64,000 nt of DNA. Source: Clostridia bacterium. GTDB lineage: Bacteria > Bacillota > Clostridia > Oscillospirales > CAG-272. A model generated the notes under the pieces. It had not been told where the DNA came from, ran no database searches, and saw only the letters and a program-made list of their open reading frames with translations. Both the position numbers and the translations under genes were made by a program. Where the stretch lies: positions 2,760 to 66,759 of the forward strand of contig JAGBAS010000116.1 in assembly GCA_017938885.1 (NCBI GenBank). Reading direction: 5' to 3'. Positions 27,766 through 52,265 of the stretch are shown piece by piece (position 1 is the first letter of the stretch; each line of letters begins with the position of its first letter).

Positions 27766-29841
27766 ATGAGCCATACACCCACCGTCATCGTCGCAAAGAA
27801 CGCGGGCTTCTGCTTCGGTGTCGCCCGCGCCACCAAGGCCGTGGAGACCGAAATGGCGGAGCACCCCGCGGGGGAGCGCATCTTCACCTTGGGCCGCCTG
27901 ATCCACAACGAGATCTACAATCAACGCCTGGCTGCGGGAGGCGTGACCGTCATCTCCGCCGAGGAGCTCCCCCGCCTGGCCGCCGAGGCCACTCCCGAGG
28001 CCCCCGTCAAGGTCTTTGTCCGTGCCCACGGCATGACCAAGGAGACCGAGGCACTTCTCACCGCCTGCGCCGCAAAGAACCCCGCCTTTTCCTTCGTGGA
28101 CTGCACCTGTTCCTTCGTCAAGAAGATCCACCGTATCTGCGCCGAGCATAACGAGTTGAATGAAAACGCCCGCCGCGAGACGGGAAAGGACGACCGCATC
28201 CTCGCCGTTCTGGGCTCTGCCGATCACCCCGAGGTCGTGGGATTTCTCAGCCGTTTCGAGGGGAAAAAGGTGGTTTTTAGCAATGCCGCCGAGGCTGAGA
28301 CGCTTCTGTCCGACGGTACCGTCCCCACAGATGGTTCCGTGATCCCCGTTCTGGTGGCACAGACGACCCAGAATATCACCGAATGGGAAAAGACAAAAAA
28401 AATTTACAATTTAATCTTTACGCGTCCATATATTTATGATACAATTTGCAGTATTACGGACTCCAGACAGAACGAAGCCGCTGAGCTCGCACGCAAATGC
28501 GATCGCATCATCGTGATCGGGGGCAGAGACAGTTCCAACTCTGCCAAGCTCTATTCGATCTGTAAGAACATTTGTGCTGACACCGTGTGGGTGGAGCGCG
28601 CAGACGAGCTGCCTGAGAATAGTCCGCCCTATCAAAGAATAGGGATCGTGGCAGGAGCATCGACTCCCCGCGATATCATTGAGGAGGTAACAAACAAAAT
28701 GAGCGAGACCATGAACGAAAACTTCGCGGAGCTGCTTGAGGATTCCCTCAAGACATTAAATACAGGAGATACTGTGACCGGTATTATTACCAGCATTAGT
28801 GCAGGCGAGATCCAGCTTGACCTCGGCGCCAAAGTCACCGGCGTTATCAAGCAGGAACAGATCACCGATGATCCTTCCGCAAAGCTGAGCGAGATGTTCA
28901 AAATCGGAGACCAGGTGGAGGCATTCGTGATCCGTGTCAGCGACCGCGACGGCTTCGCTGAGCTCTCCAAGAAGCGCGTTGACTCCGACAAGAACTGGCA
29001 GAGCATCGTTGCCGCATACGAGGCAGGCGAGAATCTGGAGGGTAAGGTCATTTCGGTCAACAAGGGCGGCGTTGAGGCCATTGTCCGCGACAACCGCGTA
29101 TTCATTCCCGCAGCCCACACCGGTATTCCCCGTGAGGGCGATCTGTCCACTCTGGTCGGTCAGACCGTGACTCTCCGCATCCTGGAGATCGGCGACCGCA
29201 AGAGAGCCAAGGGCTCCATCCGTCTGGTTCTCCGCGACCAGAAGCGCGCCCAGGAGAAGGCTTTCTGGGAGGAGATCGAGGAGGGCAAGATCTACACCGG
29301 TACCGTCAAGTCCATGACCAGATACGGCGCATTCGTGGATCTGGGCGGCGTGGACGGTATGGTTCACTGCTCCGAGCTGTCCTGGAAGCGCATCAAGTCT
29401 CCCGCTGAGGTTCTGGCTATCGGCGACGAGATCACCGTCTTCGTCAAGAGCTACGACGCTGAGAAGAAGCGCATTTCTCTGGGCTACAAGACCGAGGCTA
29501 CTAACCCCTGGTTCATCTTCACCCACCAGTACGCCATCGGCGATACCGCTCCCGTTAAGATCGTCAGCCTGATGCCCTTCGGCGCATTCGCTGAGATCGT
29601 GGACGGTGTGGACGGTCTGATCCACATTTCCCAGATTGCTGACCACAAGATCGGCAAGCCCGCCGACGTTCTGGAGGTTGGTCAGGTCGTGGATGCCCGC
29701 ATCATCGACATCGACAACGACAACCAGAAGGTCAGCCTGTCCATCCGCGCTCTGCTGGAGGAGGCTAAGGCCGCCGAGGAGGCTGCTCCCGTCGAGGAGA
29801 CCCCCGCCGAGGACGGCGTGGTCTACACCACCGAGGAGTAA
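27766..29841 (+). CDS. ispH: Bifunctional 4-hydroxy-3-methylbut-2-enyl diphosphate reductase (IspH/LytB) / ribosomal protein S1 fusion
   Basis: N-terminal IspH (AKNAGFCFGVARA, VAQTTQ, DTICSITDSRQ, GGRDSSNSAKL). The C-terminal part has four S1 repeats (GDTVTGIITSI.., GKVISVNKGG.., YTGTVKSMTRYGAFVDLGG, APVKIVSLMPFGAFAEI). Confidence 0.9.
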   Translation: MSHTPTVIVAKNAGFCFGVARATKAVETEMAEHPAGERIFTLGRLIHNEIYNQRLAAGGVTVISAEELPRLAAEATPEAPVKVFVRAHGMTKETEALLTACAAKNPAFSFVDCTCSFVKKIHRICAEHNELNENARRETGKDDRILAVLGSADHPEVVGFLSRFEGKKVVFSNAAEAETLLSDGTVPTDGSVIPVLVAQTTQNITEWEKTKKIYNLIFTRPYIYDTICSITDSRQNEAAELARKCDRIIVIGGRDSSNSAKLYSICKNICADTVWVERADELPENSPPYQRIGIVAGASTPRDIIEEVTNKMSETMNENFAELLEDSLKTLNTGDTVTGIITSISAGEIQLDLGAKVTGVIKQEQITDDPSAKLSEMFKIGDQVEAFVIRVSDRDGFAELSKKRVDSDKNWQSIVAAYEAGENLEGKVISVNKGGVEAIVRDNRVFIPAAHTGIPREGDLSTLVGQTVTLRILEIGDRKRAKGSIRLVLRDQKRAQEKAFWEEIEEGKIYTGTVKSMTRYGAFVDLGGVDGMVHCSELSWKRIKSPAEVLAIGDEITVFVKSYDAEKKRISLGYKTEATNPWFIFTHQYAIGDTAPVKIVSLMPFGAFAEIVDGVDGLIHISQIADHKIGKPADVLEVGQVVDARIIDIDNDNQKVSLSIRALLEEAKAAEEAAPVEETPAEDGVVYTTEE
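28417..28445 (+). promoter_or_regulatory. Candidate internal promoter (TTTACG-17-TACAAT, TGn-extended) inside ispH, upstream of the S1 moiety
   Basis: It lies in an AT-rich patch within coding sequence. 250 nt downstream is GAGGAGG, then 11 nt, then an in-frame ATG at 28699 (MSETMNENFAELLEDSL, an S1-like N-terminus). Confidence 0.4.
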
Positions 29842-29856
29842 TTCCTACATGAAAAT

Positions 29857-29910
29857 CCCCTTAGAACAACACAAGGCTATGTATCAGTGCTGTTCTGAGG
29901 GGGTTTTATT
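29857..29910 (+). terminator. Rho-independent terminator of ispH-rpsA
   Basis: ccccttagaaca (29857-29868) pairs with tgttctgagggg (29891-29902, one G-U pair), followed by gttttattatgtttt. Confidence 0.8.
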
Positions 29911-29915
29911 ATGTT

Positions 29916-29940
29916 TTGGTACGGGTAACAGGACTTGAAC
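29916..29940 (-). repeat. att-core copy A: 3'-terminal fragment of a minus-strand tRNA
   Basis: ttggtacgggtaacaggacttgaac. Its reverse complement reads TTCAAGT-CCTGT-TACCCGT-A-CCA (T-loop, T-stem 3' strand, acceptor 3' strand, discriminator, CCA). There is no matching T-stem 5' strand or cloverleaf. Confidence 0.8.
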
Positions 29941-30074
29941 GTCCTCGCTTCGCTCGGGGGCAAGTTGCGAGAACAGAGCATAAACAGGAGCTTTACGGGC
30001 AACTTGCACAGGTTCTTCATAACCCATTACCTGTACCAATAGAAAGAGGAGGGAACAAGCCCCTCCCCTTTCTA

Positions 30075-30099
30075 TTGGTACGGGTAACAGGACTTGAAC
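30075..30099 (-). repeat. att-core copy B (attL of the prophage): tRNA 3'-end fragment next to integrase
   Basis: Identical 25 bp. Here the next 5 nt complete the T-stem (ACAGG/CCTGT), but no D or anticodon arm or acceptor 5' strand follows. Confidence 0.8.
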
Positions 30100-30107
30100 C
30101 TGTTCGG

Positions 30108-30167
30108 AACAAGAAAAAACAGATATCAAACAAGAAAAAATTAAAATCGTTTCGCAAAACGTTTCGC
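30108..30167. promoter_or_regulatory. Putative integrase arm-type sites between att and int
   Basis: Direct repeats aacaagaaaaaa (30108-30119, 30129-30140) and cgtttcgc (30148-30155, 30160-30167). Confidence 0.4.
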
Positions 30168-30172
30168 GGAAA

Positions 30173-31249
30173 CTATTTTGAGAGAAATTTGCAGAAATAT
30201 TCCTGCATCTGATCCTCCACAGATGTCTTTTTCGATGCCATGATATGGCCATAAACCTTATCGATCATGTTCTCGCTTTCGTGACCAACATAATCCGCAA
30301 TATACTTCTTCGGGATATTTAAAGATAGCATGACGGACACGGTGTAATGCCGCAAGTCGTGAAACCGGTAGTGCGGTAGATCATGCTTTTTCAGCAACCG
30401 GGGAAACTGGTTGCTGATGATATTCGGGCGCGGGGCTATGTAGTCGCCCGTGTCCGGGTGGGTCTCCTTATAAGTTTTCAGCGCGTCGCTGACGAGAGGG
30501 AACATGCGGATCGTTCGGGTGCCGGCGGCTGTTTTGGTGGTCTTTTCAACGAAATCGTTTTTATCGTTGATAACCACGGCGTGATTGATGGAGATCGTGT
30601 TCCGGACGAAATCGATGTTGCTCCATTTGATGGCGCAGATCTCCGAGCGTCGAAGGCCGCAACAGGCGGCCAGAAGGATAGGGATCTCCAGATCCGAACC
30701 GACTGAGATTTCAAACAACCGCTTTACATCCTCTTCTGTTGGCACAGTGATCTCGCTTTTTTTCTTTTGCGGGAGCGTAGTCGCAAAAGTAAAGTCCGGG
30801 CGATAGATCGAAAAAACAGACGAAAGAAAGCCGTGGAGGTTTCGCACGGTTTTCGGAGATCGGGTGATGGAGATCTTGTTGATTTCCACCTGGATCTGCG
30901 CCGGGGTGATTTTTTCAATGGGGGTGTTGCGCAAATCGTCGAAATGGTTCTTGGCGAAGCCTTGGTAAAGCCGGAGTGTTGTGGGAGATAACACGCCCGT
31001 TTTCATGGAGACAAATTCCGTCATAGCCTCACCGAGGGTGGGGCTTTTCTTTGCGCCCTCGATCTTTTCGCGCTTTTTGTCAGCCTTGAATTGCGCAACC
31101 TCCAAGAGCACAGCGTTATAATCATAGCTTGTGAACGACTCATACCGCCTCTTGCCGTCTGCGTCTGTGTGGCTGTAGACCTTGGCATGGTACGCCCCGC
31201 TTGGCAGCTGCTTGATGGCGGGCAACCTGGTGTTTCGTTTTTTCGGCAT
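30173..31249 (-). CDS. Tyrosine-type site-specific recombinase (phage integrase)
   Basis: N-terminal SAM-like/arm-binding region. Catalytic region ..AACCGLRRSEICAIKW.., HDLRHYTVSVMLSLNI, VGHESENMIDKVYGH (R..HxxR..Y pattern). Confidence 0.9.
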   Translation of the reverse strand: MPKKRNTRLPAIKQLPSGAYHAKVYSHTDADGKRRYESFTSYDYNAVLLEVAQFKADKKREKIEGAKKSPTLGEAMTEFVSMKTGVLSPTTLRLYQGFAKNHFDDLRNTPIEKITPAQIQVEINKISITRSPKTVRNLHGFLSSVFSIYRPDFTFATTLPQKKKSEITVPTEEDVKRLFEISVGSDLEIPILLAACCGLRRSEICAIKWSNIDFVRNTISINHAVVINDKNDFVEKTTKTAAGTRTIRMFPLVSDALKTYKETHPDTGDYIAPRPNIISNQFPRLLKKHDLPHYRFHDLRHYTVSVMLSLNIPKKYIADYVGHESENMIDKVYGHIMASKKTSVEDQMQEYFCKFLSK

Positions 31250-31252
31250 ACT

Positions 31253-31735
31253 CTACCTCCGTAAAAACCCAATGTCCCCGTGAAACACATCTACCACAAA
31301 GTAAGCCGTCAGAGCGATACAGCAGCAGCACAGCACCGCGCCGAGCACGAAAACCACCGCAGTCAGCTTGGCGTTGTTCTTTTCGTATCGGGCGTTACGG
31401 TCCCGTACCTCGGCCAACAGTTTTTCCATTTCGACGAGCTGGGCCTCCTTGACCTTGAGCACGGTATCGTAGGACTCGACCACGGTCTCCACCTCCTTGG
31501 GCGGCTCCTCGCCGGGGAGAGCCACGGAAAGGATCTTGTCTACGGATATGCCCAGGGCGATGGCGATGGTCAGGACGTTTTCAAAGCCGGGCCGCTTGCT
31601 CGCGCCGCTTAGGATGCGGGAGACGGTGGTCTCGGGGATGTGGGTCATCTCGGAAATATCCTCGTTGGACAGGTGCTTGGATTTTTTGATCTCTCGGATT
31701 CTCTCAATAAGAATTTGTGTGTAATCCATTTTCAT
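31253..31735 (-). CDS. XRE-family HTH protein with coiled coil and C-terminal transmembrane anchor (membrane-tethered repressor candidate)
   Basis: HTH LSNEDISEMTHIPETTVSRILSG; coiled coil KVKEAQLVEMEKLLAEVRD; TM LTAVVFVLGAVLCCCCIALTAYFVV. The stop lies 4 nt before the int start. The exact start is uncertain (31735, 31729 or TTG 31750). Confidence 0.7.
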   Translation of the reverse strand: MKMDYTQILIERIREIKKSKHLSNEDISEMTHIPETTVSRILSGASKRPGFENVLTIAIALGISVDKILSVALPGEEPPKEVETVVESYDTVLKVKEAQLVEMEKLLAEVRDRNARYEKNNAKLTAVVFVLGAVLCCCCIALTAYFVVDVFHGDIGFLRR

Positions 31736-31769
31736 CTCACTTTCTTGCAATTTTAGTATCGAAAAATTT

Positions 31770-31805
31770 AAAAAATCATTTTTTCACCCCTAAAAATCAT
31801 TTTTG
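31770..31805. promoter_or_regulatory. Two copies of a near-palindromic operator AAAAATCATTTTT, 21 bp apart
   Basis: Copies at 31770-31784 and 31791-31805, in the divergent region between the HTH-TM gene (-) and the 31866 promoter (+). Confidence 0.55.
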
Positions 31806-31865
31806 CATCCGCAAAAACGGTGCTCAAGGATGAAAATAAGATGCCCAAAAAAACCAGTTTCGCTC

Positions 31866-31894
31866 TTGAGACTTTTTTGGGTTTTTGCTATAAT
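31866..31894 (+). promoter_or_regulatory. Sigma-A-type promoter (TTGAGA-17-TATAAT)
   Basis: ttgaga at 31866-31871, a 17-nt spacer, and tataat at 31889-31894. Confidence 0.7.
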
Positions 31895-31941
31895 ACAGCC
31901 ATCAAAACAACACAGCGCCCACGGCGCGGAAAGGAAGAGAT

Positions 31942-32140
31942 CATGACCGACAGCCGAAACTACAGAGACGAGCATGAGAGCCGCGACGCAGACCGTCGCA
32001 CCGAGGAGACCAGAGTCCGCGTCAAGGACAAGCTGTACAAGGCCAAGGCGGCCGGGCAGCTGGACGACGACGACGAAGACCTGATCCTGCAATACGCGCT
32101 GGGAGTCGTGACCCGACGCGGGAGACATACGCAGGAGTAA
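31942..32140 (+). CDS. Small charged protein (66 aa), paralog of the 42474-42626 product
   Basis: SD GAAAGGAAG before the ATG at 31942. The C-terminal block VKDKLYKAKAAGQLDDDDEDLILQYALGVVTRRG matches LKEKLYAAKASGLLTESDEALILEYALSIIRRRK. Confidence 0.6.
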
Positions 32141-32187
32141 GGCTTTGATATATGCGTTATTTCAATGGGAAGGAGTGAAGTTCGTGG

Positions 32188-32211
32188 GCACCCCGCCGAG
32201 AGGCGGGGTGC
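32188..32211 (+). terminator. Rho-independent terminator
   Basis: gcaccccgcc-gaga-ggcggggtgc followed by ttacattttgtt. Confidence 0.8.
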
Positions 32212-32216
32212 TTACA

Positions 32217-32236
32217 TTTTGTTGACGTCAACAAAA
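32217..32236. repeat. 20-bp perfect palindrome ttttgttgacgtcaacaaaa
   Basis: It is self-complementary around the central GACGTC and lies directly between the terminator and the iterons. Confidence 0.9.
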
Positions 32237-32239
32237 TGC

Positions 32240-32320
32240 GGAACGATAGGAGGTATTTGTGGAACGATAGGAGGTATTTGCGGAACGATAGGAGGTATTT
32301 GCGGAACGATAGGGGGTTAT
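32240..32320. repeat. Four tandem 21-bp iterons ggaacgataggaggtatttg(t/c)
   Basis: Copies at 32240-32260, 32261-32281 and 32282-32302, with a degenerate copy at 32303-32320. They are intergenic or abut the stop of the SWIM gene. Confidence 0.9.
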
Positions 32321-33411
32321 TTTTTGGGAACAGGTGTTGTGCGTAGCTTATCAAAATATATTTTCATGGAATTCTCAAATAGATCTTTTCGAACCGACAG
32401 TACGCCAGCATGGTATGCCAAAAACAGCATATGCTTGCACGGCTGTTTTGTTTTTGCGTAATCGGTACAATTACAACGAGTCAAAGATGTATCGTGATAT
32501 GCGCCAGTTTCAGACCGAACTGTTGCGCTGATGTGAATACTACCCAAAAACTCAATATTTTCGATTTGAGAACGATGAAACCTTTTGTCTTTGACGCGCT
32601 CGTAAAAATCAAACATAGTAGGATAACGATAGAACCGTTCAGCACCTGTCTCCAACCGATTTAAAGCATCTAAATACAGGGCACTAATAGAGTCTTCATC
32701 TATAAGGTTAGTTTGAGTAGAAAGATTCACTGAATGTTTCTCGCCTGCTTTTTCAGCTTCTTTTTTATAAAAAGTAAGGTGATCGTCTAATCTTTTGATT
32801 GTAGCGTTTTTCTCGGCTATTTCCTTCTTGTATCTTTCTTCAGAGGATTTGTAAGAGCGAAGTTGAACATTCAGCCAGTCAATCTCGCTTGCGGATTTCA
32901 AATCTCGTAATTTGGATATTTCGTCTCGAAGTTCTTTTTCAGTTTGCTTTTGGATAGATAAACTTATTTCAAGGCTTTTTTTATCACTTTCTAAAAACCT
33001 GATCTTGGATTCGTAATCTGAAATGATCTTCCGAAGCGAATTGTTTTCCTGCTTGTATGTGCTGATTCTCGCATCAAGGCTTTTCTCTTGCTCTTTAAGA
33101 CGTTTTTCAAACTCTTGCAGTTCCAGTTGCTTTTTTTGTGCTTCTGAGGCTTTTTTGGTCGCATCTGACATTCTCATATTATAGGCAAGTTCTTTTTGTA
33201 TGCGATCACGAGCCTCATCGGAAAGATTTAAAGAGCCTTCAGAACTCTTTTTAATTTCATCTGTTCCTCGCAAAGGTAAACCAACCAACCTGCGATATTT
33301 GTTCTCCCACACCTGGGATTCTTTTTTGCAAGCGGATAAGTTGCAAGCCAAAACAATTATTGCAATGACGGCAGCAGGAGTTGCTAATCCAACGAGATAC
33401 AGAAATTCCAT
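32317..33411 (-). CDS. Membrane-anchored long coiled-coil protein with C-terminal SWIM zinc finger (unknown function; low-GC moron)
   Basis: N-terminal TM LVGLATPAAVIAIIVLAC. About 200 aa of heptad-rich K/E/L sequence follow. SWIM CxCxnCxH: CNCTDYAKTKQPCKH. A 60-nt sample (32701-32760) has 22/60 G+C against 43/60 at 33901-33960. Confidence 0.75.
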   Translation of the reverse strand: MEFLYLVGLATPAAVIAIIVLACNLSACKKESQVWENKYRRLVGLPLRGTDEIKKSSEGSLNLSDEARDRIQKELAYNMRMSDATKKASEAQKKQLELQEFEKRLKEQEKSLDARISTYKQENNSLRKIISDYESKIRFLESDKKSLEISLSIQKQTEKELRDEISKLRDLKSASEIDWLNVQLRSYKSSEERYKKEIAEKNATIKRLDDHLTFYKKEAEKAGEKHSVNLSTQTNLIDEDSISALYLDALNRLETGAERFYRYPTMFDFYERVKDKRFHRSQIENIEFLGSIHISATVRSETGAYHDTSLTRCNCTDYAKTKQPCKHMLFLAYHAGVLSVRKDLFENSMKIYFDKLRTTPVPKK

Positions 33412-33412
33412 A

Positions 33413-33757
33413 TCAGTCGCCCTTCTTCCTACTCAATATAAACTCCGCATATCTTTCCAGATCAGCCAGCTCCTCCGCGCTCATGCTGTCGATCAGAGAG
33501 AGAAGCTTCGGGTCTACCGTTACGGTAGGCTCTTTTTCTTTTTCAGCGAAGCGTTGAAGATCCAGCGGCACATTGCCGAGCAGGTAGTCCACGCTTACAC
33601 CGAAGTAGTCGGCGACTTTCTTCAAAGTGTTGTTTCGAGGGGTAGCCCCGTTTTTCCACTTTGTTGCCGTAGCGTTGGACAACCCCAACTCGGCGCACGC
33701 ACCGTTAGGCGAAATACCTTTAACGGTACAAAGAGACACGAATGTTTCCCAAAACAT
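33413..33757 (-). CDS. XRE/cI-like HTH repressor
   Basis: SD AAAGGAGG before the ATG at 33757. HTH ISPNGACAELGLSNATATKWKNGATP..LKKVADYFGVSVDYLLG. The stop lies 1 nt before the SWIM gene start. Confidence 0.8.
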   Translation of the reverse strand: MFWETFVSLCTVKGISPNGACAELGLSNATATKWKNGATPRNNTLKKVADYFGVSVDYLLGNVPLDLQRFAEKEKEPTVTVDPKLLSLIDSMSAEELADLERYAEFILSRKKGD

Positions 33758-33818
33758 AATAACCTCCTTTGTTTTGTAAAAACTAACTAATTCTAAATAT
33801 TTGCTTGTGTGCCATTTG

Positions 33819-33838
33819 CTGAAATTAGAAAAATTCAG
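33819..33838. promoter_or_regulatory. Imperfect 20-bp palindrome (candidate operator) between repressor gene and early promoter
   Basis: ctgaaattag|aaaaattcag has 7 of 10 symmetric positions. It sits 10 nt upstream of the -35 at 33848. Confidence 0.4.
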
Positions 33839-33847
33839 AAAAAGCAC

Positions 33848-33876
33848 TTGACAAGTTAGACAAAGTAAGATATAAT
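33848..33876 (+). promoter_or_regulatory. Consensus early promoter (TTGACA-17-TATAAT)
   Basis: ttgaca at 33848-33853, a 17-nt spacer, and tataat at 33871-33876. It is divergent from the cI-like gene. Confidence 0.8.
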
Positions 33877-33882
33877 GACAGT

Positions 33883-34010
33883 ACCACCTCCGCCGAGGGA
33901 TCAGCCGAAACGGTCAACCACCCCGTTCCGCCCTCCGGCGAGAAGGCGGCCCGCCGCTTGAAAAACGGGTTCGGGCCAGCCGATAATCAGCCGTCCGAGG
34001 CGGAGGTGGT
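33883..34010 (+). ncRNA. Candidate structured RNA/leader closed by a 12-bp perfect helix, starting at the predicted +1 of the early promoter
   Basis: accacctccgcc (33883-33894) pairs with ggcggaggtggt (33999-34010). Inside are AACGG..CCGUU and CCGCC/GGCGG-type helices and a duplicated AUCAGCCG. No credible ORF is present. The strand is not resolved, because the arms are perfectly complementary. Confidence 0.45.
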
Positions 34011-34036
34011 GCCAAGCTCCCCTGGCTTTCTTGTTC

Positions 34037-34082
34037 GAATTTTCCCCCCTGCTCGTGGTGCCATACGGGCGGGGGAAAATTC
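34037..34082 (+). other. 12-bp perfect hairpin downstream of the structured element
   Basis: gaattttccccc (34037-34048) pairs with gggggaaaattc (34071-34082) across a 22-nt loop. No U-tract follows. Confidence 0.5.
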
Positions 34083-34138
34083 GGGGCGGGGGCGTTAAAA
34101 AGTAACGGAATATAATATAAGGAAGGGAAGGTGAAGGA

Positions 34139-34465
34139 ATGGAAGATGTGAAGAGGGTCAACGTGGACGGTGAGGAATACGTGATCGTACCGATCTGCCC
34201 TATGACGGGATACCCGGAGCGGTATACCAAGGGAAGGACCGAGGAGGAGATCGCGGATTTTCGTGAAAGTATTCGAGATATACTGGGACGAAGTATCTAC
34301 GACTACGCTGAGCGGTGCGGAGCATTGAAGAGAACCGACACCGTTTATGAAAATGGGGATACGATCATCGAATGCGAGTTGCAGGTGCTTGTCAAGGCTC
34401 AGGCTTGGGAGGAAGCGGTCCACGAGGATCAAGAACGGAATCCTCCTTGTAATCGTGATACATGA
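34139..34465 (+). CDS. Hypothetical phage early protein (108 aa)
   Basis: Coding-like codon pattern (gaa gat gtg aag agg gtc aac gtg gac..) and a purine-rich SD region. Its 3' end overlaps the convergent 34392-34646 gene by 74 nt. Confidence 0.6.
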   Translation: MEDVKRVNVDGEEYVIVPICPMTGYPERYTKGRTEEEIADFRESIRDILGRSIYDYAERCGALKRTDTVYENGDTIIECELQVLVKAQAWEEAVHEDQERNPPCNRDT

Positions 34466-42496: not shown

Positions 42497-42626
42497 TAGA
42501 AAGCGCGTATTCAAGAATCAATGCTTCGTCGGATTCGGTAAGTAAGCCACTCGCTTTGGCTGCGTATAGTTTTTCTTTCAAACGGAGGGCAATTTCGGAT
42601 GCTTCGGATATAGTATTGCTTTTCAT
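42474..42626 (-). CDS. Small protein (50 aa), paralog of the 31942-32140 product
   Basis: Minus-strand ATGA overlap with the stop of the upstream AP2-like gene. MKSNTISEASEIALRLKEKLYAAKASGLLTESDEALILEYALSIIRRRKQ. The ORF is below the track threshold. Confidence 0.55.
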   Translation of the reverse strand: MKSNTISEASEIALRLKEKLYAAKASGLLTESDEALILEYALSIIRRRKQ

Positions 42627-43141
42627 TTCTGACTCCTACTATTAGATTTTCGTGTGTTGTTCATTTGTGTATCCCACGTTGCCCAACGACAGTTTTCGGG
42701 GCAATAATTGCCATTGGGATCGATACGGTCTAAAGTGCATTGATTACGAGGAGCTTTATCATCATAACCGTGCGAATAAGCCCAATCAGCAAAGTTTTGA
42801 AAAGATTGTCGCCATTCATCACAAACGGTGATGCCACGGCCACCATAATCATTGTAATTGATGGCATTAGGATTAGAACAACGGGTGATCATGCCGTGCC
42901 AAACTCCGTATAGTCTTGATTGTGTTGCGTTGTGTGTTTTACGACTGTCATAATATTCTTTAAGTAAACAGCCGCAACTACTGATATGTCCAGAAGTAAG
43001 ATTAGATATTCGAACTTCAGCGTAATTGCCGCAATCACATTTGCAACGCCAAACAGATTGATGGCCGCTAAGTCTGTCCAACTTATAAAGTGCTGTAAGA
43101 CGACCAAAACGTTGTCCAGTAATATCTTTTATTCTTGCCAT
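42623..43141 (-). CDS. Phage-type DNA-binding protein (Cys-cluster N-domain plus YGGRGI/AP2-like C-domain)
   Basis: GQRFGRLTALY..WRCKCDCGN..SGHISSCGC, then SRLYGVWHGMITRCSNPNAINYNDYGGRGITVCDEW and DRIDPNGNYCPENCRWAT. It is AT-rich (21/60 G+C at 42901-42960). Confidence 0.65.
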   Translation of the reverse strand: MARIKDITGQRFGRLTALYKLDRLSGHQSVWRCKCDCGNYAEVRISNLTSGHISSCGCLLKEYYDSRKTHNATQSRLYGVWHGMITRCSNPNAINYNDYGGRGITVCDEWRQSFQNFADWAYSHGYDDKAPRNQCTLDRIDPNGNYCPENCRWATWDTQMNNTRKSNSRSQK

Positions 43142-43178
43142 AGTGCCTCCTTATGTTGATGATTATCGTTACAATGAT

Positions 43179-43207
43179 ATTATAGCACTAAATATTAGTG
43201 AAGTCAA
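43179..43207 (-). promoter_or_regulatory. Consensus promoter (TTGACT-17-TATAAT) for the AP2-like gene
   Basis: The minus strand reads atATTGACTtcactaatatttagtgcTATAATatc. Confidence 0.7.
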
Positions 43208-43300
43208 TATAAAAAGTGCACGAATTATTAGTGAACATTTTGGGCAAATATGACACTTGAATTTAGTGAATGAGGGTATTATAATTTACTTATTAGTGAA
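43195..43300. promoter_or_regulatory. Four direct copies of TTAGTGAA (operator candidates) across the divergent promoters
   Basis: Copies at 43195-43202, 43228-43235, 43263-43270 and 43293-43300, spaced 30-35 bp apart. Confidence 0.6.
43257..43285 (+). promoter_or_regulatory. Promoter (TTGAAT-17-TATAAT) for the small HTH gene
   Basis: ttgaat at 43257-43262, a 17-nt spacer, and tataat at 43280-43285. Confidence 0.7.
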
Positions 43301-43313
43301 AGGAGATGAAAAG

Positions 43314-43535
43314 ATGCCAATACAGTATAAGATTGATATCTTGAAAGAACTGAGAGAAAAAGGGTACACACAGTTTAGAATTAGGCAAGAAAAACTAATT
43401 GGTCAATCGTATTTACAACAGATAAGAAAAGGAGAGATTGTTTCAAAAAACTGCCTCGAGACCTTGTGCGAGTTGCTGGAATGCCAGCCGGGAGATCTAT
43501 TAGAGTATGTCTCAGATAAGAAACAGAATAAATGA
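43314..43535 (+). CDS. Small XRE-like HTH protein (73 aa)
   Basis: SD GAAAGGAG before the ATG at 43314. ..KGYTQFRIRQEKLIGQSYLQQIRKGEIVSKNCLETLCELLECQPGDLLEY. Confidence 0.7.
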   Translation: MPIQYKIDILKELREKGYTQFRIRQEKLIGQSYLQQIRKGEIVSKNCLETLCELLECQPGDLLEYVSDKKQNK

Positions 43536-43577
43536 CAGGCCGGACATGAGGCAAGAGCCAGAGTGCCGTTGAAAGAC

Positions 43578-43626
43578 GAGAGCCACACAAACACACCAGA
43601 GGGTATTTGTGTGGCTCTCATTTTAT
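43578..43626 (+). terminator. Rho-independent terminator
   Basis: gagagccacacaaa (43578-43591) pairs with tttgtgtggctctc (43606-43619), followed by attttatat. Confidence 0.85.
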
Positions 43627-45877: not shown

Positions 45878-46381
45878 GTGGCAAGAGGCGTTAAAATCGA
45901 GGACTGGGAGACGGAGGAGGCGTTGGCATTGCTCAAATCGGTGTCGTCGCTGACGATGGAGGAGATCGCCACGAGGGTGATCGGTCTCAAGAGCCGCAGG
46001 ACGCTCTACAACTGGTGCAACAAGTCAGAGGCCATCAACAAGGCCCTCCAGCAAAAGGTGGACGAGGAGACGCGGCGCGAGGTGGAGGCAGAGGTGATCA
46101 AGAGCTGCTTCGTTCGCAAAATGAAGGTCAAGACCAAGAAGCAGGCCCTGGACCGAGACGGCATCGTGCACGATCTTGAAGAAGTCCGGGAGTACGTCAT
46201 CCCCCCGGACTTCCGGGCGCAGGCCTACGTGCTCAATAACAGAGCGCCCGGGCGGTGGAGCCAGAAGCCTGTGGCGGAAGTCGATGATACCGCCGTCGCC
46301 GGCTTCATCCCCGTTCCCGACCTGATGGACGATCCTGATGAGGACGCCGGAGAGGATACGGAGGTCAGGGACATTGAGTAA
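45878..46381 (+). CDS. Terminase small subunit
   Basis: GTG at 45878, 5 nt after AAAGGAGGG. HTH-like MEEIATRVIGLKSRRTLYNW and C-terminal ..AYVLNNRAPGRWSQKP. It lies directly upstream of TerL. Confidence 0.7.
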   Translation: MARGVKIEDWETEEALALLKSVSSLTMEEIATRVIGLKSRRTLYNWCNKSEAINKALQQKVDEETRREVEAEVIKSCFVRKMKVKTKKQALDRDGIVHDLEEVREYVIPPDFRAQAYVLNNRAPGRWSQKPVAEVDDTAVAGFIPVPDLMDDPDEDAGEDTEVRDIE

Positions 46382-47849
46382 GACCATCTACGACCGATAC
46401 CAGACCGGCGAGATCTACGACGGTAAGAGAGCGGTCTGGGTACCCCAGCCGCGACAGGAGGAGTTCATGCGCCGTACCGAAGACGAGGTTCTTTTCGGCG
46501 GCGCGGCGGGAGGAGGAAAGAGCGACGCGCTGGTGATCGAGGCTCTACGGCAGATCAAAATGCCCTGGTATAAAGGACTGATCCTGCGCCGCACCTATCC
46601 GCAGCTCAAAGAGCTGATCGGTAAATCAAGACTATTCTACCCGCAGATAGACCCCAAGGCGGAGTTCAACAAGACCGAGCACACGTGGTATTTTTCCTCG
46701 GGGGCGCAGATCATCTTCGGATCCATGAACAACGAGGACGCAAAATACAACTACCAAGGCCAGGCGTATGACTACATAGCCTTCGACGAACTGACACAGT
46801 TCACCTTTCCCATGTACGACTACCTAAGGTCGCGGAACCGTCCTAACGGCCCGGGTATGCGGTGCTATATGAGAGCGTCCGCCAACCCCGGCGGCATCGG
46901 TCACGGATGGGTCAAGGATATGTTTATTACGCCCGCACCTCCGATGACCAGAATGTTGAAAGAGGTCGTCGTAGAAAACGATGACGGATCTGTGGAGACA
47001 AGGCGTATGTCGCGCATATTCGTGCCGTCCAAGGTCAAGGACAACCACGCGCTCATGCGGAACGATCCCAACTACATATTCCGCTTGGCCGCCATGAGTG
47101 AGGCCGAGAAAAAAGCCCTCCTGGACGGCGACTGGGACTCTTACATAGGCCAGTTTTTCGGCGAGTGGAAAAACGATCCCGATCACTACCGAGATCACGT
47201 TCATACCCACGTGATCGAGCCATTCGATCCGCCCGAGCACTGGCGGTACTACCGTAGCTTTGACTGGGGCTTCCGCAAACCTTTTTCCTGCGGATGGTGG
47301 GCGGTGGACCGAGACGGCGTGGCCTACCGCATCTATGAGTTCTACGGCTGCAAGAGAGACCGACCTGACACGGGAGTCGAGCTCAACGCTTCCGAGGTTT
47401 TCGCCGAAATCGCCAAGCTGGAGCGGACTCATCCCTACCTTAGAGGACGCGAGTTTATAGGCGTGGCTGATCCCGCCTGCTGGAATCGTCAGACAGGTAA
47501 AAGCGTGTATCAGGAGGCCGCAGAACAAGGAGTGGTGTTTACGAAAGGCGATAATGAGCGAGTAGCCGGCTGGATCCAATGCCACGAGCGGTTGAAATTC
47601 GGACCGGACGGACGAGCCCGCGTCCGCATATTCAAGACCTGCCGCGACTTCATCCGAACCGTCCCCGCCGTCATGGCAGATGAGCATCACGCCGAGGACG
47701 TAGACACAACGGGGGAGGACCACATCGCCGACGAGTTCCGATACTTTTGCATGAGGAACCCATGCGCCCCCATGAAGAGACCGCCGCCCGATCCACGAAG
47801 AAAGAATCCGGCACACACCTATCTGGACGTGCCGATAGAGGACTTGTAA
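46377..47849 (+). CDS. Terminase large subunit
   Basis: Walker A FGGAAGGGKSD, Walker B-like YDYIAFDELTQF, and a C-terminal nuclease region. The TTG at 46377 lies 9 nt after GGAGG; the ORF track's first ATG is at 46338. Confidence 0.85.
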   Translation, partial: SKTIYDRYQTGEIYDGKRAVWVPQPRQEEFMRRTEDEVLFGGAAGGGKSDALVIEALRQIKMPWYKGLILRRTYPQLKELIGKSRLFYPQIDPKAEFNKTEHTWYFSSGAQIIFGSMNNEDAKYNYQGQAYDYIAFDELTQFTFPMYDYLRSRNRPNGPGMRCYMRASANPGGIGHGWVKDMFITPAPPMTRMLKEVVVENDDGSVETRRMSRIFVPSKVKDNHALMRNDPNYIFRLAAMSEAEKKALLDGDWDSYIGQFFGEWKNDPDHYRDHVHTHVIEPFDPPEHWRYYRSFDWGFRKPFSCGWWAVDRDGVAYRIYEFYGCKRDRPDTGVELNASEVFAEIAKLERTHPYLRGREFIGVADPACWNRQTGKSVYQEAAEQGVVFTKGDNERVAGWIQCHERLKFGPDGRARVRIFKTCRDFIRTVPAVMADEHHAEDVDTTGEDHIADEFRYFCMRNPCAPMKRPPPDPRRKNPAHTYLDVPIEDL

Positions 47850-49844
47850 ATGAGCAAAGTGACAGAAAAAATCAAAAACATATTCTCGCCCAAGCCCGTA
47901 AATCCCCAGACGTCTGCGAAAGCAGAGGACGGAGGGGATGCCAAGGCGAGCCCCAAAACCACCATCGGAAAGAAAGAGATCGAGTACGCGGGCCGACTGC
48001 TCAACGAGTACGTGATGGCCAAGAGACCCACCGACAACCGAATCCTCAACGAGGAAGAGTGGTTCCGCCTGCGGCACGTTCCCGCCGATCCCGTGAACCC
48101 CAAGACAGCCTACGAGGGGGAGACGGTACCAAACGACACCGGGACCATCAAGCAGGCCTCCAGCCTCCTCCTCAACTCCGTCCGCAACAAGCACGCGGAC
48201 AGCATGGACAACCAGCCCCGCGTCAACATCCTGCCCAGGCAAGAGGACGACGAGGATGAGGCCGCCGTCCTGACCGCGATCATGCCCTCTATCCTCGCCC
48301 AAGCGAGATTTGAGCAGATGTACGACGACGCGATGTGGTCCAAGATCAAGCACGGTGTGGCGGTCTTCCACGTCTTCTGGAACCCGAAGGCGGACGGCGG
48401 CCTCGGCAGCGTCGGTATCAAGAAGGTAAACCTCCTGAATCTCTTCTGGGAGCCGGAGGCGGAGGACATCCAGGATTCCGAGAACGTGTTCTACGTCCGC
48501 AAGATGAGCATCGCCAAGATCAAGCGCAACTACCCCAACGTCAACGTGGATGAGCTCAACACCAACGCCGATACCGCCGAAGAGTACGAAGACAATCCGA
48601 AGCGTCAGATGACCACCAAGGCCGACGTGGTAGACTGGTACTACAAGATCGAGCGGGACGGAAAGACCATCCTTCATTTCGCGCAGTTTGTCGGTACGCA
48701 ACTCATCTACGCTACCGAGAACGACCCAGAGATGGCGGAAAGAGGCCTGTACGACCACGGCAAATACCCCTTCATTTTCGACGTCAACATACCCCTGGAG
48801 GGTCAGCCCATCGGCTTCGGTGAGATCGCCTGCGGTAAAGGTAAGCAAGAGTGGGTAGACGTTCTGTGGGCAAAGATCATGGAAAACACCGAGTGGTCAG
48901 CCACGGCACGGTACTTCGCCGAGCTCGGAAGCAAAGTGAATCTGAAGGATTTCTGCGACCCGAAAAAGAAGATCGTGGAATACACGGGAACGCCGGACGG
49001 GCTGGTGCGTATCGAGACCGCGCCCATCCACGGGAGCATCCTCCAGATCCTGGATATGCTCAAGGACGAGCTCAAGGAAACCACGGGGGCGAGAGACGCG
49101 GCCACCGGTGGTACGTCGGGAGGAGTGACAGCCGCGCAAGGTATCGCCATTATGAGCGAGAACAGCGGCAAGACCAGCCGAGACAGCAACCGAGGATCCT
49201 ACAGAGCCTTCGCGGAGGTGATCGAAATGGTCATCGAGCTGATCCGCCAGTTCTTCGACAAGCCGCATTACTACCGTTTCTCGGGCGAAGGATACCAAGG
49301 CTACATCCGCTACAAGAACGACGGCCTCAACTATCAGCGAATCCGCAACGAAAACGGTATTGTGTCCAACGGCGAGGCAAGACACCCGCTTTTTGACCTG
49401 GAGATCACGGTCGAAAAGAACAGCACCTACACAAGGCTCCAGCAGAATCAGCTGGTACTCCAGCTGTACAGCGCGGGCTTCTTCAACCCGCAGAATAGTG
49501 CGTCCTCCCTGACCGCCCTGGAAATGATGGACTTCGACAAGAAGAACGAGATGCTGCGCAAGATCCGTGAAAACGACTCGCGCCAGCAGCTTATGGTAAC
49601 CATTGCCCAGGAGAACGTACAGATCTGCGCCGAACTGGATCGCAAGAATGCCGAGGACGGCATCACCACCAACTTTACCGCCCAGGCACAGCAGAAGCTG
49701 GCCTACATCCAACAAGCGATGGGAGCGGTCAAGGGAGCATCTGCCCCCCCCTCCGCGCCTGTCAACACTACGGCAGGCGTACAGGAATCCTCGGCCATCA
49801 CCAAAGCCAAGGAGCGGGTAGCGCAGTCCACGTCGGCAACGTAA
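47850..49844 (+). CDS. Portal protein
   Basis: 664 aa, immediately after TerL and before the Prp/scaffold/capsid genes. Assignment is by position and size. Confidence 0.75.
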   Translation: MSKVTEKIKNIFSPKPVNPQTSAKAEDGGDAKASPKTTIGKKEIEYAGRLLNEYVMAKRPTDNRILNEEEWFRLRHVPADPVNPKTAYEGETVPNDTGTIKQASSLLLNSVRNKHADSMDNQPRVNILPRQEDDEDEAAVLTAIMPSILAQARFEQMYDDAMWSKIKHGVAVFHVFWNPKADGGLGSVGIKKVNLLNLFWEPEAEDIQDSENVFYVRKMSIAKIKRNYPNVNVDELNTNADTAEEYEDNPKRQMTTKADVVDWYYKIERDGKTILHFAQFVGTQLIYATENDPEMAERGLYDHGKYPFIFDVNIPLEGQPIGFGEIACGKGKQEWVDVLWAKIMENTEWSATARYFAELGSKVNLKDFCDPKKKIVEYTGTPDGLVRIETAPIHGSILQILDMLKDELKETTGARDAATGGTSGGVTAAQGIAIMSENSGKTSRDSNRGSYRAFAEVIEMVIELIRQFFDKPHYYRFSGEGYQGYIRYKNDGLNYQRIRNENGIVSNGEARHPLFDLEITVEKNSTYTRLQQNQLVLQLYSAGFFNPQNSASSLTALEMMDFDKKNEMLRKIRENDSRQQLMVTIAQENVQICAELDRKNAEDGITTNFTAQAQQKLAYIQQAMGAVKGASAPPSAPVNTTAGVQESSAITKAKERVAQSTSAT

Positions 49845-51128: not shown

Positions 51129-52265
51129 ATGAAAATCAACGTAAGACCCGATTTCGAGTTCCTGGTGGTGTTTGATTTGCAGATCTTCGCGGACGTTGTC
51201 GTTCCCGAGAACGCCGCCGGCAACATGAACACCACCACCAGCGAGGGGCTGACCGCCGACCAGAAGAACGCGATGAACACTGAGTTCATCCGCAAGGCTG
51301 AGGCGAAGCTTGTCTTCAACAAGTACGGCAAGAAGATCAACATCGGCCTGCGCAAGGGCAAGAAGATCGAGCTGTTCAAGATCGGACGTACCGACCCCAA
51401 GAACACCAAGAAGCTGGCTGAGGGCCTGACCCCCGATCCCTCCAAGATGGCGCTGGAATCCTTTGAGATCCCCGTGGCGCAGTACGGCGACTGGATGATC
51501 TTCACCGACGAGCTGCTCACCACCAGCCTCCACGATCTCTTCCGCGAGGGTAAGCGTATGCTGGCCCGTCAGCTGGCCGAGACCTACAACATGTTCACCT
51601 ATGAGCATCTGGTGGCCAATGCGCAGCGCATGTACTGCAAGCCCATCAACGCCGATGGAACGCTGGGCGCGAGACCTACCAAGACTACCGAGGTGACCGA
51701 AACCTGCCGCCTGTCCTTGAAGACCATCGTCCGCGTCGTGGCCATGCTCAAGGCGGACGATATCCCCGGTGTGATCGGGGATGACTACATCATGTACATC
51801 CACCCCCACAACTGGCACGATCTGATCCTGGATCCCGAGTGGCAGAAGTTCCACCTCAACGACTCCTCCAATATGCAGTCGGGCGAGCTGGGCCGCATTG
51901 CCAACTGCCGATTCATCGACTCTTCCTTGATCACTATCACCAAGGGTACGGTGACCATCGATGGCGCGGACGGTGAAGAGACTGTCGTCATCGGCGGCGG
52001 CGCGAACGGCTCCATTCCCCTGTACCACAACATCATCCTGGGCGGGAACGCCTACGGCGTGGTGGACATCGCCAACAAGGGGATCCGCGCAATCGACAAG
52101 GAACTCGGATCCGGCGGTGTGGACGATCCCCTGGATCAGAGAGCCTCGACGGGCGGTAAGTTCTGGTGGGGGTGCGGTATCCTCGACGAGCTGGCCCTCT
52201 ACGACGTGGTATGCACCTCCGACGAGTTCGCCGACGAGTTCGACGAGGACGAGGCCACGGCATAA
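51129..52265 (+). CDS. Major capsid protein with L27-like N-terminal leader
   Basis: Leader ..FLVVFDLQIFA|DVV. 378 aa, located after the scaffold gene. Confidence 0.8.
   Translation: MKINVRPDFEFLVVFDLQIFADVVVPENAAGNMNTTTSEGLTADQKNAMNTEFIRKAEAKLVFNKYGKKINIGLRKGKKIELFKIGRTDPKNTKKLAEGLTPDPSKMALESFEIPVAQYGDWMIFTDELLTTSLHDLFREGKRMLARQLAETYNMFTYEHLVANAQRMYCKPINADGTLGARPTKTTEVTETCRLSLKTIVRVVAMLKADDIPGVIGDDYIMYIHPHNWHDLILDPEWQKFHLNDSSNMQSGELGRIANCRFIDSSLITITKGTVTIDGADGEETVVIGGGANGSIPLYHNIILGGNAYGVVDIANKGIRAIDKELGSGGVDDPLDQRASTGGKFWWGCGILDELALYDVVCTSDEFADEFDEDEATA

Follow-up and report, generated by a model that had tools for sequence, protein, structure and literature searches.

A membrane-anchored coiled-coil SWIM protein encoded behind a prophage repressor, with Mrr-nuclease relatives and a candidate role in lysogen defence

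We analyzed a 64,000-nucleotide stretch of DNA from a Clostridia bacterium (Oscillospirales, CAG-272; contig JAGBAS010000116.1 of assembly GCA_017938885.1), referred to as the window, in which a gene for a 364-residue protein lies directly behind a phage repressor-like gene. The window holds a genuine prophage, with an integrase, a replication initiator, TerL (46338-47849), a portal protein (47850-49844) and a major head protein (51129-52265), and the two genes stand in its lysogeny module (Table 1). The 364-residue protein matches NCBI MBP3667412.1 at 100%, a record titled 'SWIM zinc finger family protein [Clostridia bacterium]'. We refer to its gene as the cassette gene and describe below its parts, the exchange of its contents among sibling phages, the nuclease-bearing relatives that it shares a scaffold with, and the possible role of such proteins in protecting lysogens.

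The cassette gene and its product

The repressor-like gene ends with a TGA at 33415-33413 and the cassette ATG begins at 33411, so that 33412 is the sole base between them. Scans found no promoter or terminator between the two genes, and a terminator only after the cassette. The natural reading is that the two genes are co-transcribed and translationally coupled, and the one-nucleotide gap, the uninterrupted junction and the shared downstream terminator bear out the original prediction, made from the letters of the window, that the gene sits in a slot like that of lambda rexAB, one nucleotide behind a cI-like helix-turn-helix (HTH) gene. The repressor-like gene scores 31.6 bits against Pfam HTH_3 (cut-off 23) and 24.5 bits against HTH_26, and it matches PHROG 8/4, annotated as transcriptional regulator/repressor. 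Upstream of it lies a divergent control region of 380 bp (33758-34138), which holds a putative sigma-70-type promoter pointing away from the repressor.

The cassette protein consists of an N-terminal transmembrane (TM) helix, a coiled coil and a C-terminal SWIM module, the three parts that the original prediction had named. The most hydrophobic 19-residue window on the Kyte-Doolittle scale starts at residue 3, with a mean of 2.49. Lysine and arginine are absent ahead of the helix and KKESQVWENKYRR (pattern KKxxxxxxKYRR) follows it; because charges occur only after the helix, the positive-inside rule predicts an N-out/C-in orientation. A lipoprotein N-terminus (LSAC / VLAC) was considered and rejected, given the lack of lysine or arginine ahead of the hydrophobic stretch and the length of the helix; the cysteine of the would-be lipobox also varies in the relatives P0007, P0015 and P0041. 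Proline and glycine are absent across 163 residues (60-222) and heptad periodicity is strong from about residue 85 to 225, which gives a coiled coil of about 140-165 residues, shorter than the roughly 200 first proposed. Library matches in this part (SHE3, CEP85, SMC, LmuB/JetC) are compositional only. At residues 311-335, Pfam SWIM (PF04434) scores 24.1 bits and passes its gathering cut-off of 19.6, and the zinc ligands C313, C315, C325 and H327 are invariant in an alignment of 68 relatives. We regard the protein as a genuine SWIM-domain protein for which zinc binding is predicted. A sequence scan and Pfam found neither an HExxH motif nor Peptidase_M78 in it.

Table 1. Features of the lysogeny module and its surroundings in the window.
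Feature	Positions	Strand	Evidence or remark
Host ispH-rpsA fusion gene (LYTB + S1) beyond the integrase	27766-29841		Prophage integrated beside it
Tyrosine integrase closing the lysogeny module	30173-31249	-	Phage_integrase, 57.8 bits
Gene for HTH_3 domain, short coiled coil and C-terminal TM helix	31253-31729	-	Adjoins integrase
Small convergent open reading frame (ORF), 99 residues, acidic C-terminus	31841-32140	+	Near-consensus extended -10 promoter at 31866-31894
GC-rich hairpin, bidirectional terminator between cassette and convergent ORF	32184-32215	.	14-bp stem, 10 GC pairs
Phage-specific insertion from stop codon to terminator; may not belong to the system	32221-32322	.	Tandem Repeats Finder score 149, 4.0 copies
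Cassette gene, 364-residue TM - coiled coil - SWIM-module protein	32317-33411	-	ORF, identity, GC, dN/dS
C-terminal SWIM module, residues 238-364	32320-32700	-	AlphaFold2 model, profile search, invariant ligands
SWIM CxCx(n)CxH zinc-ligand motif CNCTDYAKTKQPCKH, residues 313-327	32431-32475	-	Pfam PF04434 and motif scan
Coiled-coil stalk, residues 60-225	32737-33234	-	Pro/Gly-free run and heptad periodicity
N-terminal transmembrane anchor, residues 3-25	33337-33405	-	Kyte-Doolittle 2.49
Conserved upstream junction: repressor 3' end and first ~70 nt (TM-coding) of cassette	33344-33476	-	Shared with siblings bearing other heads
Repressor-like Xre/cI-type HTH gene, 114 residues	33413-33757	-	HTH_3, HTH_26, PHROG; ribosome-binding site AAAGGAGG ahead of ATG
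Putative sigma-70-type promoter TTGACA-17-TATAAT, toward early genes	33848-33876	+	12/12 consensus match

The SWIM module begins with two or three helices and a beta-hairpin, continues with the zinc knuckle and its helix, and closes with a long C-terminal helix whose last residues are TPVPKK. An AlphaFold2 model built from 68 aligned relatives (predicted local distance difference test, pLDDT, 92.1; predicted template modelling score 0.73) places strands at 58-62 and 68-72, followed by helices at 79-84 and 89-97 (domain numbering), which is a SWIM-like order; an earlier one, from 8 sequences, reached a pLDDT of only 60, too poor for its Foldseek result to have any meaning. A Foldseek search of the better model against the PDB gave no neighbour (best E 1.5), a sequence-profile search of the PDB with the module gave no match, and the fold matches in BFVD were weak only, to small SWIM-type phage proteins. 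Together with Pfam, these PDB searches turned up no structural or housekeeping family, the kind of hit that would have spoken against the original prediction. Compared with its ortholog at the sibling locus L016, the cassette gene has a ratio of non-synonymous to synonymous change (dN/dS) of about 0.18, and the module itself differs at a proportion of 0.17 of non-synonymous sites (pN) and 0.79 of synonymous sites (pS). The gene is under purifying selection, i.e. it is functional.

Exchange of cassette contents and the link to Mrr-type nucleases

The cassette gene has a G+C content of 38.3% (34.5% at third codon positions, GC3), against 50.7% (GC3 60%) in the HTH gene, 50.4% in the integrase, 55.7% in the remaining prophage and 59.5% in the host flank. 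The same pattern recurs in every high-GC sibling, where the cassette contents have 38-41% and the phage 56%. In addition, DNA similarity to the siblings breaks about 70 nt inside the gene and returns at the terminator. These observations agree with the original prediction on both the AT-richness of the gene and its separate acquisition, and they support the view that the cassette gene is foreign, separately acquired accessory cargo.

At one sibling locus (L007), a homologous gene for 114 residues is followed, after the same one-nucleotide gap, by a gene for a different protein (P0015, 445 residues), a small convergent gene, another gene and the integrase. P0015 opens with the first 23 residues of the window protein (MEFLYLVGLATPAAVIAIIVLAC) and continues with a different coiled coil and with Mrr_cat/Mrr_cat_2. 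DNA similarity between the window and this locus is limited to two stretches, 33476-33344 (83%) and 32210-32006 (75%), the second of which takes in the terminator and the small gene. Compared with L016, the first 45 codons are near-identical (pS 0.03) and the remainder is saturated at synonymous sites (pS 0.6-0.8). Since the similarity is confined to both flanks, we conclude that this is a slot with conserved flanks and exchangeable contents. The terminator hairpin opens the conserved downstream flank (32006-32220) and directly adjoins the cassette stop codon in L016 and L013, and the region of the 99-residue convergent ORF is kept beside the slot whatever the cassette, with 72-76% DNA identity in L007, L016 and L013.

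The two alternative contents are joined in a third protein. In P0041 (594 residues), residues 124-220 align with the window's SWIM module (31% identity, E 5e-13) and residues 226-593 align with P0015 (39% identity, E 1e-83). Because P0041 matches both, the two sibling cassettes correspond to two halves of one fused protein, in the manner of a Rosetta stone. Past the first 45 residues or so, the coiled coils of the window protein and of P0015 and P0041 cannot be aligned. Of 134 representatives scanned with Pfam, 26 have Mrr_cat, and a separate census counted an Mrr-like C-terminus in 30 of 147 (about 20%), 27 of which have the order TM, SWIM and Mrr. The usual fused layout is TM - coiled coil - SWIM (at about 180-230) - coiled coil - Mrr_cat (at about 400-530), and none of the 10 aligned sequences has lost any part of the catalytic signature D...QCK. 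The Mrr domain of the fused relatives suggests that DNA cleavage is the effector activity of the family.

The protein itself is found, identical over all 364 residues, on 18 metagenomic contigs with the same arrangement in every one, and orthologs at 63-81% identity occupy the same slot. In distant relatives, homology is confined to the C-terminal ~127 residues (38-55% identity), and their N-termini carry either a signal peptide, an extracellular YHYH domain and a TM segment, or several TM segments; all have a coiled coil. An exhaustive profile search with the SWIM module gave, at E<1e-10, 138 clusters formed at 50% identity, and at E<1e-3 it gave 1031 representatives. A TM segment precedes the module in 95 of the 147 best representatives, Pfam SWIM is found at E<=1e-3 in 115 of the 134 relatives scanned, and the commonest architecture is SWIM-only, with 60 of 147 representatives against 27 fused ones. 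Several lineages keep the TPVPKK tail with a terminator immediately after it.

A survey of neighbourhoods, which had been named as a check on the original prediction, identified the homologs as genes of prophage lysogeny modules: a repressor or a recombinase/integrase lies within three genes in 11 of 14 informative distinct loci, and two more contigs were too short. P0008 (38% identity) directly follows a repressor with HTH and Peptidase_S24 (L015); the relative at L013 follows a gene for 137 residues that has no Pfam match and is similar in DNA to the window HTH gene, the counterpart of the repressor; and at L030 the gene before P0041 is an HTH_3 repressor that is transcribed divergently from cro-like genes. 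P0069, a SWIM-Mrr protein, lies between HTH/ImmA genes and the integrase (L033-35), and in an Oscillospiraceae metagenome-assembled genome (L024) the member is flanked by an HTH repressor and the integrase. Fused forms stand beside two HTH genes and an integrase (L025, found also on an IMG/VR viral contig), ahead of a cI-like HTH gene and an integrase (L026), and, in the case of P0053, ahead of a serine recombinase (L121). P0039, a relative with three SWIM motifs and no TM segment, adjoins a tyrosine integrase (L117/118).

When the repressor rather than the SWIM module was followed, the association proved loose. IMG/VR holds 224 confirmed relatives of the window repressor, and among the 80 loci taken from these (L037-L116) only one has a SWIM-family gene, so members of this repressor family do not regularly come with such a gene. 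In 40 of 76 cases, the gene right behind the repressor relative instead encodes an HExxH ImmA/IrrE-like protein of about 142-155 residues, often with 4-nt overlaps or gaps. The SWIM gene is cargo put where ImmA, or nothing, usually stands. Pfam scans found no Peptidase_S24 in the window repressor and no ImmA gene near it; the window phage therefore needs some other induction route.

Searches of reference libraries and literature returned no described counterpart. PADLOC-DB v2, NCBIfam and PHROGs gave coiled-coil noise only for the window protein, P0015 and seven fused forms, the LmuB/JetC/SMC matches falling far under the family cut-offs. The window protein, a fused form and the module were searched by tblastn against 50,697 cultured phage records and 72,556 plasmids and matched none of them, and a profile search of a word-indexed database with a 30-sequence module alignment returned five short proteins only. 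Full-text literature searches found no paper tying SWIM domains to prophage immunity, defence, Mrr or abortive infection. Within the limits of the libraries searched, the family is undescribed, as the original prediction had supposed for this architecture.

Several further observations concern the relatives. At one locus (L040 / L019, IMGVR_UViG_3300029305_011847), a repressor homolog is followed by an ORF for 124 residues with two TM segments and then by a separate ORF for a 173-residue SWIM module; barring a wrong ORF call, anchor and head may here be split in two genes. The C-termini of P0015, P0041 and P0054 share a conserved GEKIYHLPFDQQYD...GFRRAF and score 23.6-26.4 bits against NCBIfam 'sunset' (threshold 27), and the Mrr forms have a conserved region of about 130 residues, YPWIA...LFPWLEEF, between the coiled coil and Mrr_cat, to which no family is assigned. 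Many relatives (P0008, P0011-P0013, P0019-P0022; loci L013 and L015) carry a YHYH domain (NCBIfam NF033223) ahead of the TM segment, a part that is predicted to face outward and could contact phage particles or sense the envelope. At L015 (7637-8183), a RelB/ParE-YafQ toxin-antitoxin pair and an Ada_Zn_binding gene lie between the SWIM gene and the integrase, and PemK toxins lie near family members in L036 and L119. The lysogeny-module slot seems to collect conflict-type cargo.

Interpretation and rival explanations

Prophage defence and exclusion genes typically lie in the immunity region, as do lambda rexAB, lactococcal sie2009, S. thermophilus ltp, Salmonella BTP1 bstA and the prophage-mediated defence genes of mycobacteriophages. 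We propose, at what we judge to be an even chance, that the cassette gene is an accessory 'moron' expressed in the lysogen, where its product would protect against superinfecting phage or other incoming DNA. The N-terminal helix would anchor the protein in the cytoplasmic membrane, and the coiled coil of about 150 residues would dimerise or oligomerise it and hold the SWIM module at the inner membrane face, where phage genomes enter. The module would then be the head that recognises incoming DNA or a phage protein entering with it. In the relatives, an Mrr-type nuclease (D...QxK) behind or in place of the SWIM head would cut the invader. The nuclease-less form of the window might block or sequester the entering genome, recruit a host nuclease, or damage the membrane upon oligomerisation (abortive infection). 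The nuclease head and the predicted cytoplasmic, membrane-proximal location together suggest that the target is DNA on its arrival at the membrane, which could be superinfecting phage genomes and possibly conjugative DNA too. The original prediction had named 32317-33757 a candidate exclusion or defence module; its defence idea gains considerably from the nuclease link and the conserved placement in the lysogeny module, whereas the HTH gene is more plausibly the switch gene of the phage itself than half of a defence pair.

Several points weigh against this proposal. No recognisable effector domain was found in the cassette protein, and Mrr_cat (PF04471/PF13156; D...QxK) is missing from it and from the window at large. 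With a net charge of +3 and an isoelectric point of 8.75 (family median 8.3), the SWIM module is no more than weakly basic, and R277 and K326 are its only conserved basic residues; DNA binding is therefore not evident from sequence, which alone fails to distinguish it from protein binding, and SWIM domains are equally able to mediate protein contacts. As PADLOC gave no match and the cultured phages and plasmids no relative, homology offers no function to carry over. Cargo of immunity regions can also consist of regulators, toxins or conversion factors, and no lysogeny genes were found at L027, L028 and L036, where detection was limited.

The lack of an effector domain also leaves room for a lysogenic-conversion factor that acts on the host, through cell division, sporulation, the envelope, DNA uptake or conjugation. 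A TM helix with a long coiled coil resembles the N-terminal scaffolds of EzrA, ZapG and RNase Y, relatives have sub-threshold matches to ZapG-like, RNase_Y_N and ATP-synt_B families, and morons at such a position often alter host traits. These scaffold matches are compositional and all lie under the curated cut-offs, the recurrent fusion to or swap with an intact Mrr-type nuclease indicates DNA as the target, and the module is confined to prophage lysogeny modules; we consider a conversion factor unlikely. The ImmA-like gene that fills the slot in 40 of 76 repressor relatives raises another option, in which the cassette protein, translationally coupled to a repressor that has no Peptidase_S24 and no ImmA nearby, replaces the ImmA-type protease as a membrane-tethered sensor or anti-repressor partner and couples an envelope or DNA signal to induction or maintenance. 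The relatives with YHYH domains (P0008, P0011-13) do resemble transmembrane signalling proteins. However, the sibling phage fills the same slot with an Mrr-type nuclease after a homologous gene of the same length, 114 residues; members occur beside integrases without an adjacent repressor, or upstream of and apart from it (L025); and foreign G+C content and patchy presence (1 of 80 loci) favour cargo over a core part of the switch. Because ImmA and a SWIM-Mrr protein coexist in L033-35, replacement of ImmA is in our view only a minor rival, and rather an unlikely one.

Two further explanations start from the fact that the window protein has the architecture of the N-terminal half of the fused proteins. 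In one, the nuclease-less copy is a decoy or anti-defence protein that co-assembles with a resident full-length TM-SWIM-Mrr protein to neutralise or retarget it, or acts as its antitoxin-like partner. The SWIM-only and Mrr-only proteins are exact halves of the fused form with an identical TM start, and coiled coils make hetero-oligomers possible, but the SWIM-only form is the commonest (60 of 147), the coiled coils of the window protein and P0015/P0041 diverge beyond alignment, the window holds no full-length partner, and expression with the repressor better suits defence of the lysogen, which makes a decoy improbable. In the other, the gene is a truncated, functionless leftover of a fused gene. 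We regard such decay as very improbable in view of the low dN/dS and strongly constrained SWIM module, the tail and immediate terminator kept in several lineages, and the intact, identical ORF on 18 contigs of what is the commonest form of the family.

Beyond protection by this one gene, a wider proposal, which we find possible if doubtful, is that the cassette represents a widespread undescribed family of single-gene prophage immunity proteins of gut Clostridia, with an anchor, a stalk and exchangeable SWIM and Mrr heads that intercept DNA at entry. If so, a bacterial SWIM domain would for the first time have a role in defence, membrane tethering would be new among type IV-like restriction activities, and the lysogeny-module slot would be a recombination hotspot that swaps heads.

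Comparison with known systems and further features of the prophage

Like lambda RexAB, the cassette product is membrane-associated, accessory to the switch, and encoded directly downstream of the repressor in the same presumed transcription unit, hence presumably expressed in the lysogen; it differs in being a single gene with one TM helix and a SWIM head, whereas RexAB has two components, the sensor RexA and the four-TM channel RexB, and no sequence relation to RexAB appeared among the PADLOC or PHROG matches. Sie2009 of lactococcal P335 phages and Ltp of S. thermophilus phage TP-J34 likewise lie between repressor and integrase and are membrane-anchored. Sie2009 and Ltp act at the step of DNA entry and are small or exposed on the cell surface. 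In the window protein, by contrast, the bulk, including the Cys/His zinc site (and the nuclease in relatives), is predicted to be cytoplasmic, and it has no PHROG match; in the YHYH variants, too, the signal peptide, ectodomain and TM segment are predicted to put the SWIM module inside. Since it lacks their defining components and shows no sequence relation to them, we place the cassette protein outside the RexAB and Sie families.

Type IV restriction by Mrr (PF04471) is approached by the relatives, which carry an intact Mrr_cat on the same TM-coiled-coil scaffold, and not by the window protein, which has none. Classical Mrr is a soluble, chromosomal protein with an N-terminal winged-helix DNA-binding domain, without a membrane tether or SWIM head. 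BstA of Salmonella BTP1 offers an analogy as a single prophage gene in the immunity region. It presumably detects the DNA of an invading phage or the replication of that DNA, and it is soluble, with KilA-N-like and DNA-binding domains. No homology to BstA was found; by analogy with its aba element, the 21-bp repeats beside the cassette (described below) might be a DNA element of the locus, for which a role in self-immunity is pure speculation, and the repeats are missing from sibling loci. Zorya and Kiwa may be seen as analogous in coupling a membrane part at the site of DNA entry to a partner in the cytoplasm that acts on DNA, namely a nuclease in Zorya and a DNA binder in Kiwa; both are multi-gene chromosomal systems of unrelated proteins, and the window protein has no PADLOC match to them. 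With other SWIM proteins (SNF2-associated bacterial SWIM, MuDR/FAR1, MEKK1, ZSWIM) it shares the CxCx(n)CxH knuckle and helix, and it differs from them in its extended module of about 127 residues, with conserved flanking helices and no detectable solved relative. The libraries and literature searched hold no description of SWIM paired with a TM anchor, a coiled coil and Mrr. The window protein has every feature of the family that we propose, a prophage TM - coiled coil - (SWIM / Mrr / SWIM+Mrr) protein.

To our knowledge, almost no defence biology has so far been described for gut Oscillospiraceae and Clostridia. If our proposal of lysogen protection is true, it would add a new prophage-defence family and a new design, with a nuclease or sensor on a long coiled coil at the inner membrane face, give bacterial SWIM domains a concrete, testable role, and reveal a head-swapping hotspot in prophages of these abundant gut bacteria. 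For the fused SWIM-Mrr relatives, DNA cleavage is a directly assayable activity, and the half-proteins of sibling phages offer a natural dissection into sensor and effector.

The remaining features lie around the cassette. Between its stop codon and the terminator is the phage-specific insertion, with four 21-bp tandem repeats (32237-32322; unit CCTATCGTTCCGCAAATACCT, minus strand) that overlap the stop codon, and next to them a 24-nt palindrome (CATTTTGTTGACGTCAACAAAATG, 32221-32244). Repeats and palindrome are unique in the window and missing from the siblings, and no further copy of the repeat was found in the control region. The repeats and palindrome look like protein-binding iterons. The 99-residue convergent ORF has no family match. 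The gene at 31253-31729 encodes a membrane-anchored Xre-type regulator, and siblings hold unrelated genes for 133-135 residues at this place. An Rfam scan of 29700-34300 gave chance hairpin matches only.

The stretch that separates ispH-rpsA from the integrase contains TTGGTACGGGTAACAGGACTTGAAC twice, as an exact direct repeat of 25 nt (29916-29940 and 30075-30099), and a 38-nt inverted repeat lies between the two copies (inverted repeat 30016-30098). When reverse-complemented, the 25-nt sequence reads as the T-arm and 3' acceptor end of a tRNA, and ARAGORN found no intact tRNA at the repeat; the likely explanation is an attachment-site or tRNA remnant at the end of the prophage. A second low-GC islet within the prophage (42600-43600, about 44% G+C) lies directly upstream of the replication initiator and holds a Cys-rich ORF for 172 residues without a Pfam match (42623-43141, minus strand) and an HTH_26 ORF for 92 residues (43257-43535, plus strand); it may be further cargo or an insert resembling a homing endonuclease.

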